In this document: piece after piece, positions 39,449-41,553 of the stretch
Position numbering within the stretch: position 1 is the first letter of the stretch
Layout: each line of letters opens with the position of its first letter
Assembly: GCA_965263395.1 (NCBI GenBank)
Contig: OZ253670.1
Location: 1,387,958 to 1,451,957 of the forward strand
Direction: 5' to 3'
Length of the DNA: 64,000 nt
Source of the DNA: Dehalococcoidia bacterium
Lineage (GTDB): Bacteria; Chloroflexota; Dehalococcoidia; Lucifugimonadales; UBA3495
Program-made: the position numbers and the translations under genes
The notes under the pieces: model-generated
What the model saw: only the letters and a program-made list of their open reading frames with translations
Database searches by the model: none
What the model was told of the DNA's origin: nothing

Positions 39449-39874
39449 ATGGCCGAACAGCAACTGCCGGAACTGGTCTACGACAATCTTGAGATTGGCG
39501 AAGAACTGGGTTCCTACGAGTATGTCCTGACCCAGGAGATGGTCGACGAGTACCGCAAGTCGGTGGACGACCCGGAGGGCGTGTTCCCAACCATTGCGGT
39601 CAAGCACGACGCCACCGCCCTTGGAATGGCTTACGAGGACAACACCGGAGGAGTCAACGCCGGCAATGAAATGGAGTTTTACAACCCCCCCATTCCCGGC
39701 AAGGTTATACGAGTGACCGGACGCATCCACGACAAGTATTCCCGTCGCGAAAAGCCGTACCTGGTCATCGAGGCCACCGCCACCGATGAAGATGGCCGGC
39801 TGATTGAAAAGATGCGGACGTACCAGATGAAAAAACCGGATGAGGTGGGAAAGAAATGGCATCCACAGGGCTAG
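39449..39874 (+). CDS. MaoC/FAS1-like hotdog-fold dehydratase subunit
   Basis: 141 aa, overlapping the next hotdog gene by 19 nt. The pairing resembles heterodimeric HadAB/ChsH-type hydratases. Confidence 0.65.
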   Translation: MAEQQLPELVYDNLEIGEELGSYEYVLTQEMVDEYRKSVDDPEGVFPTIAVKHDATALGMAYEDNTGGVNAGNEMEFYNPPIPGKVIRVTGRIHDKYSRREKPYLVIEATATDEDGRLIEKMRTYQMKKPDEVGKKWHPQG

Positions 39875-40275
39875 AGGAAAAGACCATCCCCGCGCTGACC
39901 AAGACCATCAGTCAGGTCAAGATTAACCAGTTCGAATCGTGCGGAATCCGGGAGCGGGAGAACATTCACAACAGCCCAGAACTGGCAAAGCAGCGGTTGG
40001 GCACCACCTATCCCATCGCCTCCGGGCGTATGTCGGTGGCCTTCGCCTCCGAGCTTCTGCGGCGGTACTTTGGGGCCGAGAACTTCCACCACAGCGGCGT
40101 GGTCAACCTGAAGTTCCTGCGCCCGGTCAAGGAAGGCGACACCGTAACCATCAGCGGCGCTTACAACAGCAGCCAGGGTGTCGAGGACGGGACGCTGGTC
40201 ACGGTAGACATCTCCTGCCAGAACCAGAACGGCGACACCACCGCCGTAGGCCAGGGCAGCGCCGTCGTAAAATAG
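39856..40275 (+). CDS. MaoC-like hotdog-fold dehydratase subunit
   Basis: IHNSPELAKQRLGTTYPIASGRMSVAF and VVNLKFLRPVKEGDTVTISG fit the MaoC dehydratase pattern. Confidence 0.7.
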   Translation: MASTGLEEKTIPALTKTISQVKINQFESCGIRERENIHNSPELAKQRLGTTYPIASGRMSVAFASELLRRYFGAENFHHSGVVNLKFLRPVKEGDTVTISGAYNSSQGVEDGTLVTVDISCQNQNGDTTAVGQGSAVVK

Positions 40276-40386
40276 CCTCGCAGAAGTGTCCAGAGGCTTT
40301 GTTGGGGATCCCCGCGTCCTTCGTGTTGGGGGGGGATAGCCTCGCCCAGGACAGGATTTCGTAAGATAATTCCGCTAAGGAGCGCC

Positions 40387-40686
40387 ATGCCGGGAGCAGA
40401 GTTCGGAAAAGTTGAAGTCGAAGTAGTCTATTGCGTACCTTGAGGGTACCATGCAGTCGCCATGTGGCTGGCGGCAGAATTCTGGCGGTCTCAGGAACCG
40501 GGCGACATCGCCATCAAGCTTACCCCCGCCGGTGGCGGCCGGTTGGAAGTCAACCTCGACGGAGAGAAGATTTTCGACGTTAAGGAAGAGGGCGGAGTCC
40601 ACCCCAACCTGTCCAAGGCCAACGAGTTGAAGATGGTCATCGCCGAAAAGGTTTTTGAGGTCGAAGAGGCCATCACCGCCAACTAG
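40387..40686 (+). CDS. SelW/Rdx-family selenoprotein candidate (in-frame UGA at 40441-40443)
   Basis: ATG 40387 lies 4 nt after AAGGAG. Reading through the TGA gives MPGAEFGKVEVEVVYCVPUGYHAVAMWLAAEF...LTPAGGGRLEVNLDGEKIFDVKEEGGVHPN. This is the IEYCxxU...P..gG.FEV..dG pattern of the Rdx family. The ORF track reports only the part after the TGA (40462-40686). Confidence 0.7.
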
Positions 40687-40806
40687 CGGGCAGGTCCGGC
40701 GCTAAAGTCCGCTGCATCAACTCAGCAGCCCGGGCCCGCGTGTCTGGGCTGTATGCTTTTGGCCCGGACTTGGCAACTGTCTCAAAGCAACTGTTCAGCC
40801 AAAAAT

Positions 40807-41553
40807 ATGCCGGCCGCGTCCCACCGGGACGGCCGGGTTGGAGCTAGGAACTTGGCTAATCCAGAGCACGTAGAGCTACTCAAACAGGGTCCCGCCGGGT
40901 TTGCCCAGTGGCGCAAGGAAAACCCCAACGCTGCGCTGGACCTGGAGGGCGCAGACCTTTCCCAAATGGACCTCACCGGAGCCAGAATCCGCAACGCCAA
41001 TCTCAAGGACGCTAATCTGACCGGGGCGAAGCTGTCCCGCGCCAGTCTGGCCAAAGCCGACCTGCGGGGCGCCGACTTCACCGGCGCCGACCTGGGCCGG
41101 GCCAGCCTGGCCGACGCCAACTGCCGCGGCGCCAACTTCACCAACGCAAACCTGCACTGGGCCGACTTCCGGGGGGCCAACCTGGAAGGGGCGCTGCTGC
41201 GGCACGCCCGCACCATGCGGACATCGTTCTTCAACGCCAACATGTCCCGCGCCGATGCCAGCCAGTCCACCATGATTGAGGTGGACCTGCGCAATGCCAA
41301 CCTGACGGGCGCCAATTTCACCGCGTCCAACATGAACGGCGCCGACATCAGCCGGGCAGTGCTGGAAGGGGCCAACTTCACCCAGGCCATGATCCGGGAT
41401 TCCATGTGGATTATGACCGATATGCGCCACGCCAACTTCGACAAGGCCAGCCTGCATCGGGCCGACATGACCATGGCCAGGTACGACAACACCACCCGTT
41501 TCCCCAACAAGTTCGACCCCACCAACACCGGCCCCAAGGAAGTAACCGATTAG
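40807..41553 (+). CDS. pentapeptide-repeat protein
   Basis: A long run of A(D/N)LxX pentapeptides: ADLSQMDLTGARIRNANLKDANLTGAKLSRASLAKADLRGADFTGADLGRASLADANCRGANFTNANL... Confidence 0.9.
   Translation: MPAASHRDGRVGARNLANPEHVELLKQGPAGFAQWRKENPNAALDLEGADLSQMDLTGARIRNANLKDANLTGAKLSRASLAKADLRGADFTGADLGRASLADANCRGANFTNANLHWADFRGANLEGALLRHARTMRTSFFNANMSRADASQSTMIEVDLRNANLTGANFTASNMNGADISRAVLEGANFTQAMIRDSMWIMTDMRHANFDKASLHRADMTMARYDNTTRFPNKFDPTNTGPKEVTD

Follow-up and report, generated by a model that had tools for sequence, protein, structure and literature searches.

The window analysed here, a stretch of 64,000 nucleotides from a Dehalococcoidia (Chloroflexota) genome that is assembled as a single contig of 4.72 Mb, carries on its forward strand a short Rdx/SelW-like gene whose reading frame is crossed by one UGA codon (Table 1). 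The start codon is the ATG at 40387-40389, and the TGA at 40441-40443 is the sole in-frame interruption before the closing TAG. Both points had been made in the initial annotation and are borne out by translation, and the ribosome-binding site AAGGAG that it placed 4 nt before this ATG is present. A listing of open reading frames under genetic code table 11 yields 40462-40686 only, a frame of 74 aa, and so reproduces the truncated call that had been reported for this position. When TGA is translated as U the product is MPGAEFGKVEVEVVYCVPUGYHAVAMWLAAEF...LTPAGGGRLEVNLDGEKIF..., 99 residues in full from MPGAEF to the terminal ITAN, with the redox motif Cys16-Val-Pro-Sec19 (CVPU).

Table 1. Coordinates of features at the Rdx/SelW-like locus and of related or candidate loci elsewhere. 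Plain numbers are window positions; all others carry their locus or genome handle.
Feature	Position	Strand	Basis or remark
MaoC-like hydratase gene	39856..40275		upstream neighbour
Shine-Dalgarno AAGGAG	40377..40382	+	4 nt 5' of the start codon; sequence inspection
Complete CDS, Rdx/SelW-like selenoprotein	40387..40686	+	99 residues plus TAG 40684-40686
Cys16 codon, opening residue of the CxxU redox motif	40432..40434	+	TGC/TGT in 30/30 orthologues
UGA codon 19, read here as selenocysteine	40441..40443	+	TGA in 30/30 orthologues
Bacterial SECIS hairpin (predicted)	40456..40475	+	folding, synonymous constraint, orthologue and paralogue comparison
Intrinsic terminator of the selenoprotein gene, stem-loop GCAGCCCGGGCC...GGGCUGU then U-rich tail	40725..40762	+	consensus scan
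Pentapeptide-repeat protein gene, ORF	40753..41553	+	downstream neighbour
Second Rdx/SelW-like paralogue	L094 129-419 (= G000:C1:4194628-4194918)	+
selD with in-frame TGA	L019 ~1471-2571 (= G000:C1:4174044-4174961 region)	+
Locus related to public records	L097 386-685
Locus related to public records	L098 47-352
Candidate UGA-split gene, TGA	G000:C1:66407	+	outside the window
Candidate UGA-split gene, TGA	G000:C1:3719906	-	outside the window
Candidate UGA-split gene, TGA	G000:C1:3997352	-	outside the window
Candidate UGA-split gene, TGA	G000:C1:4513706	+	outside the window
BtuF-like Peripla_BP_2 protein, CEVU (CxxU)	G000:C1:4615874-4616812	-	outside the window
BtuF-like Peripla_BP_2 protein, CEVU (CxxU)	G000:C1:4710137-4711060	-	outside the window

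The gene lies between a MaoC-like hydratase gene upstream, which is adjacent in 19/41 loci examined, and a pentapeptide-repeat protein gene downstream, which is the same-strand neighbour in 41/41 loci examined (54-88% identity). Homology of the pentapeptide ORF begins at about residue 29-36, which puts the probable true start near 40852. The intrinsic terminator separates the selenoprotein gene from the pentapeptide-repeat gene, and its pattern, CAGCCC(N)GG...CC(N)GGGCUG followed by a U-tract, can be found downstream of most orthologues, with compensatory changes in the stem. Because this terminator is conserved and the MaoC-like gene is adjacent in fewer than half of the loci, we treat the gene as monocistronic; judged from its sequence it looks to be so, with its own Shine-Dalgarno, ATG and intrinsic terminator. 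An operon with either the MaoC-like or the pentapeptide gene was considered and rejected on the same two grounds.

Protein family and conservation of the reading frame

For profile searches the U of the product was replaced by C. The protein scores 44.6 bits with the Pfam Rdx model (PF10262; cut-off 22.6), residues 10-71 being aligned to profile positions 1-62, and 38.6 bits with NCBIfam TIGR02174 (CXXU_selWTH; cut-off 34.2). Since the PF10262 alignment begins at residue 10, the family domain starts upstream of the UGA. The NCBIfam equivalog NF041051 (SelTWH_Campy) was matched at 41.5 bits, under its 88-bit cut-off; the 99-residue protein is related to this narrow subfamily but lies outside it.

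Searching the PDB with a profile of 28 homologues, in which the Cys16 and U19 columns are both invariant among the aligned protein sequences, recovered the bacterial Cys-form SelW-related proteins 2P0G, 2OBK, 2FA8, 2OKA, 3DEX and 2OJL at E-values of 1e-11 to 1e-7, with their CxxC aligned to CVPU. The same search also matched mouse SelW (2NPB) and MIEN1 (2LJK). An AlphaFold2 model built on the homologue alignment (mean pLDDT 89.9, pTM 0.82) has the order beta1(9-16), alpha1(22-34), beta2(41-48), beta3(53-57), beta4(60-64), alpha2(75-98), which is the thioredoxin-like beta1-alpha1-beta2-beta3-beta4-alpha2 arrangement and an exact match to the Rdx family, and places the CxxU between beta1 and alpha1. 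When the model was compared with the PDB by Foldseek, the 23 top matches were all Rdx-family proteins, led by 2fa8, 2obk and 2p0g and then 2npb, with thioredoxins following. The assignment to the Rdx/SelW family, originally made from the letters of the sequence, thus stands on both family profiles and on the SelW fold of the model.

The bacterial Cys-form structures, which include 2FA8 (Agrobacterium Atu0228), 2OBK (Pseudomonas fluorescens) and 2P0G (Vibrio cholerae) as well as 2OKA, 3DEX and 2OJL, share the fold of the window protein (Foldseek E 3e-7 to 6e-5, target-normalised TM 0.66-0.87, rmsd 1.5-3.6 A) at 24-35% identity. However, they carry CxxC and have neither a UGA nor a SECIS, and the C-terminal helix of the window protein (residues 75-98) is longer than theirs. 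Mammalian selenoprotein W (mouse SelW, 2NPB) and MIEN1 (2LJK) have the same Rdx fold and the same position of the CxxU/CxxC (PMC3527542). Eukaryotic SelW is decoded with a 3'-UTR SECIS and eukaryotic factors, whereas the window gene would use a hairpin within the coding region, read by SelB. Mammalian SelW is ~22% identical to the window protein, and its 14-3-3 and glutathione interactions are not transferable.

A six-frame protein search across 61 related genomes, from among Dehalococcoidia (Chloroflexota) MAGs and including SAR202-labelled bins, found the protein in 54 of them. The ~110 matches include paralogues, in two or three groups, as well as orthologues, and almost all contain exactly one in-frame TGA with similarity across both sides of it (~100 with the TGA vs 2 without). 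We aligned the window DNA with 29 orthologues, down to 57% identity. The TGA occupies one alignment column in all 30 sequences, the start ATG is kept in 29 and a Shine-Dalgarno core (GGAG/GAGG/AGGA) lies at the same place in 27. Amino acids are conserved and third positions variable on both sides of the TGA. Moreover, the TGA aligns with the second Cys of the CxxC in 2p0g and 2obk, and a Cys-form homologue from JGI metagenomes (P0004/L095, "selenoprotein W-related protein") has TGT where the window has TGA. The U is therefore aligned to the second redox residue, as had been predicted from the position of the interruption.

The UGA at 40441 could instead be an ordinary stop, the true protein being the 74 residues from ATG 40462 and the upstream 18 codons a leader peptide or non-coding DNA. 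This is what table-11 ORF calling returns, and most public orthologue records likewise appear as proteins of 70-76 aa. We nevertheless regard it as very unlikely. Codon 26, at which this shorter frame starts, is ATG in only 11/30 orthologues and ACG in 16, and a Shine-Dalgarno precedes it in none of the 30, which tells against the downstream Met that the initial annotation had itself raised as a possible true start; the ATG and Shine-Dalgarno that are conserved are those upstream. The 74-residue product would also be without beta1 and the entire CxxU motif, which the Rdx profile and fold require. Finally, codons 2-18 have conserved residues and free third positions, the signature of translation.

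The hairpin downstream of the UGA

The initial annotation had pointed to a small hairpin after the UGA at about 40457-40472. The hairpin is real but slightly longer than described. Its 7-bp stem pairs 40456-40462 with 40469-40475 (GUCGCCA/UGGCGGC) around a 6-nt loop at 40463-40468 (UGUGGC), with an MFE of -10.1 kcal/mol. Counted from the UGA, the loop begins at a distance of 19 nt; its second nucleotide is G and its third is U. The rules for bacterial SECIS elements, as given in the legend to Fig. 2 of PMC13188914, comprise a loop of 3-9 nt with G in its first two positions, a stem of 4-16 bp, a UGA-to-loop distance of 16-37 nt and an MFE <= -7.5 kcal/mol, and the window hairpin lies within all four constraints set out there.

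Taken alone, the hairpin is modest and only moderately informative evidence: the window is G+C-rich, and 8.4% of all its TGA trinucleotides pass this perfect-stem test. Among the orthologues 25/30 pass, 24 of them with this same hairpin, and 5/30 fall under the strict perfect-stem threshold. A TGA at one column in every orthologue together with a hairpin frequency of 25/30 vs 8.4% is far more than chance would give. Applied to the 30 orthologues, RNAalifold finds no consensus structure 3' of the UGA other than this hairpin, and 93.8% of cells are paired across them.

The silent sites of the gene carry a further signal. Four-fold synonymous entropy in codons 24-29 is 0-0.56 bits, compared with ~1.2-1.9 bits elsewhere in the gene; the third position of GCC-25 is C in 30/30, and the third positions of Leu-28 and Thr-26 are invariant. 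Constraint of this kind on silent positions means that the RNA is under selection. Among the 30 orthologues the stem is almost uniform, and its covariation is weak for that reason: one pair shows double changes, a score reached by 33/500 shuffles. The hairpin also overlaps the conserved peptide V-A-M/T-W-L-A. For these two reasons we base the argument for a SECIS on synonymous constraint and on paralogue comparison. Ten paralogues of greater divergence have the hairpin 2 nt further on, with the loop UGGAU, and pairing is kept via double-sided changes (GGCGGCC/GGUCGCC, GCAGUC/GACUGC, CUGCC/GGCAG). None of 500 shuffles attains the covariation score found here, which is also above every slid control. 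Under the same test, no such hairpin is seen in the Cys-form homologue. Folding of the RNA thus comes out in favour of a SECIS, the hairpin agreeing with the bacterial consensus, being conserved and coinciding with the constraint on synonymous sites.

Our claim is confined to the 7-bp upper hairpin. For the window copy, folding also predicts a lower stem between the UGA region and 40490-40496; it was dropped by RNAalifold in the orthologues and we do not retain it. The fold of the 63 nt at 40438-40500 is not unusual (z = -0.8), and no Rfam model matched 40300-40800 at E <= 10.

The reference bacterial SECIS is that of E. coli fdhF. It is likewise a stem-loop immediately 3' of the UGA inside the ORF, and its apical loop carries a G(U/G) whose spacing from the UGA is fixed. 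The window hairpin differs from it in sequence and is without the bulged U.

A separate observation concerns the Pro codon at 40438-40440, directly before the UGA. It is CCU in 24/25 orthologues that have Pro here (0.24 bits), unlike other four-fold sites, which are free to vary, and in most paralogues, too, the nucleotide preceding the UGA is U. The bias suggests a codon-context requirement for Sec insertion.

Selenocysteine decoding and alternative readings

The genome encodes a complete set of selenocysteine genes. A tRNA-Sec was found at 66.4 bits and is called by ARAGORN as tRNA-SeC with anticodon tca, and selA (554.6 bits), selB (319 bits, or 347 with its C-terminal piece) and selD (395.8 bits) are all above curated cut-offs. 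The organism would therefore use the Sec machinery, as it had been expected to if the recoding was genuine. Among related genomes, selA is present in 57/61. The SelD of the window genome itself has an in-frame TGA (LTELSHCAGUAAKLS), the U of which stands where E. coli SelD has Cys17.

About as improbable as termination at the UGA is a reading in which this codon is translated but not as Sec, either through a genetic code in which TGA is sense (Trp or Gly) or through read-through by a near-cognate tRNA (Trp, Cys or Arg). Its support comes from public entries: three full-length ones (P0002, P0003 and P0007) have W at the Sec position, and P0001 has R. Of the three W entries, the one checked, P0002, is a gene-caller artefact, obtained only when TGA is translated as W; the R entry comes from one 878-bp contig, in which AGA replaces TGA. 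TGA is the commonest ordinary stop among the long frames of the window (29/69) and many orthologues of the gene end in TGA, and therefore a TGA-sense code is excluded. The full and specific Sec machinery of the genome, and a constrained SECIS at the canonical distance from the UGA, both argue against non-Sec read-through. Least plausible of all is that the TGA is a recent nonsense mutation in a pseudogene or an assembly error, given that the same TGA is present in every orthologue, from independent assemblies and down to 57% identity, and in paralogues, with purifying selection on both sides of it.

Taken together, the homology, the conserved TGA, the hairpin and the Sec machinery support the central claim of the initial annotation, that a Sec-recoded SelW/Rdx-like gene had been missed by ORF calling. 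We put the probability that 40387-40686 is a Sec-decoded Rdx/SelW-like gene, with the UGA at 40441-40443 specifying selenocysteine, at about 95%. By analogy with Sec decoding in other bacteria, a ribosome arriving at this UGA would meet the hairpin at 40456-40475 in the coding mRNA, which would serve as the SECIS. The hairpin would be bound by the SelB.GTP.Sec-tRNA(Sec) complex, and Sec would be placed at position 19 rather than translation being terminated. From the motif and the fold, Cys16 and Sec19 would be expected to form a reversible selenenylsulfide that cycles with the selenol/thiol form, and the product is most likely a small thiol-dependent oxidoreductase. The Cys form P0004 adjoins glutaredoxin and OsmC genes, a neighbourhood that hints weakly at an antioxidant role.

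Related genes, family context and annotation

Other UGA-split genes, which the initial annotation had anticipated elsewhere in the genome, do occur. They comprise selD, one Rdx paralogue besides the window gene and at least six further candidates with domains spanning the TGA. The second Rdx/SelW-like paralogue (MEGKVQVEITYCVPUQHLATATWMANEFF...) is 46-47% identical, and has a hairpin, CGCCA-CGUGGA-UGGCG, at the same distance from its UGA.

A genome-wide filter for ORFs and hairpins returned 388 matches; it is very noisy, and could be used only once sites had been picked by hand and checked against Pfam. Six candidates with Pfam domains spanning the TGA were left. Four of these comprise two Prx/Redoxin-like proteins (WUPTC and TUGVC), one DsbA-like protein (UPWC) and one Trx-like protein with NHL repeats (CUINC). 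The other two are BtuF-like Peripla_BP_2 proteins with a CEVU motif, which we consider the most interesting side lead among the UGA candidates. Their TGA is conserved in ~37 matches across 29/41 relatives, and there are more distant BtuF-like paralogues without a TGA, of which the two in the window genome have Cys at this position. Visual inspection of the CEVU proteins shows no evident N-terminal signal sequence. We found no fitting NCBIfam selenoprotein model for them and, in a narrow literature search, no paper on BtuF-like CxxU proteins. The pair may represent an under-described selenoprotein family. Within the window, the crude ORF and hairpin filter gave 15 sites. Eight of these, other than the selenoprotein gene, were tested and rejected as recoded genes; seven have no Pfam match, and in the eighth a cyclophilin domain starts well downstream of the TGA, so that at none of them is the TGA spanned by a domain.

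The catalogues of the Sargasso Sea and GOS selenoproteomes (PMC1088965, PMC2398784) include prokaryotic SelW-like CxxU selenoproteins, which are also listed in many bacterial selenoproteomes (PMC1794560). Among prokaryotic selenoprotein families they rank first in abundance in marine metagenomes (PMC2398784), and in GOS the Sec forms number 427 vs 56 Cys forms. The window protein resembles this family in its length of ~100 aa, in the CxxU near the N-terminus and in the thioredoxin-like fold, and its gene has, as theirs do, a bacterial SECIS within the coding sequence, shortly 3' of the UGA. Cys forms are far fewer than Sec forms in the family, as they are among the relatives of the window gene. 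Nothing essential differs from the catalogued proteins. Since the features of the Rdx family and of a bacterial selenoprotein gene that could be tested were all found here, the gene is an ordinary, already-known kind of selenoprotein gene, and the present work is an annotation repair and not a discovery.

The window copy belongs to a Dehalococcoidia (Chloroflexota) lineage with 2-5 Sec paralogues per genome, and the gene always adjoins a pentapeptide-repeat gene. It might be supposed that the Rdx selenoprotein is a partner of the downstream pentapeptide-repeat protein, rather than a free-standing housekeeping redox protein, and that it is part of a lineage-specific, Sec-only redox network in this order, in which there are almost no Cys forms. 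We hold this to be a speculative and rather unlikely proposal.

The public records of this orthologue group illustrate a failure of annotation. JGI names members of the orthologue group "predicted Rdx family selenoprotein". Among proteins P0001-P0120, however, the public orthologues are mostly stumps of 70-76 residues that start MWLA.. or MEFW... and are without the active site. The 878-bp contig behind P0001 has ACT AGA replacing CCT TGA, with the hairpin still present.

In summary, the value of this case is practical and lies in annotation; it holds nothing new on selenocysteine biology. The correct reading of the gene restores the CxxU centre that is missing from the public fragments. Moreover, this genome, and with it the whole order, is flagged as Sec-decoding, and therefore every TGA-split redox gene there needs re-inspection.
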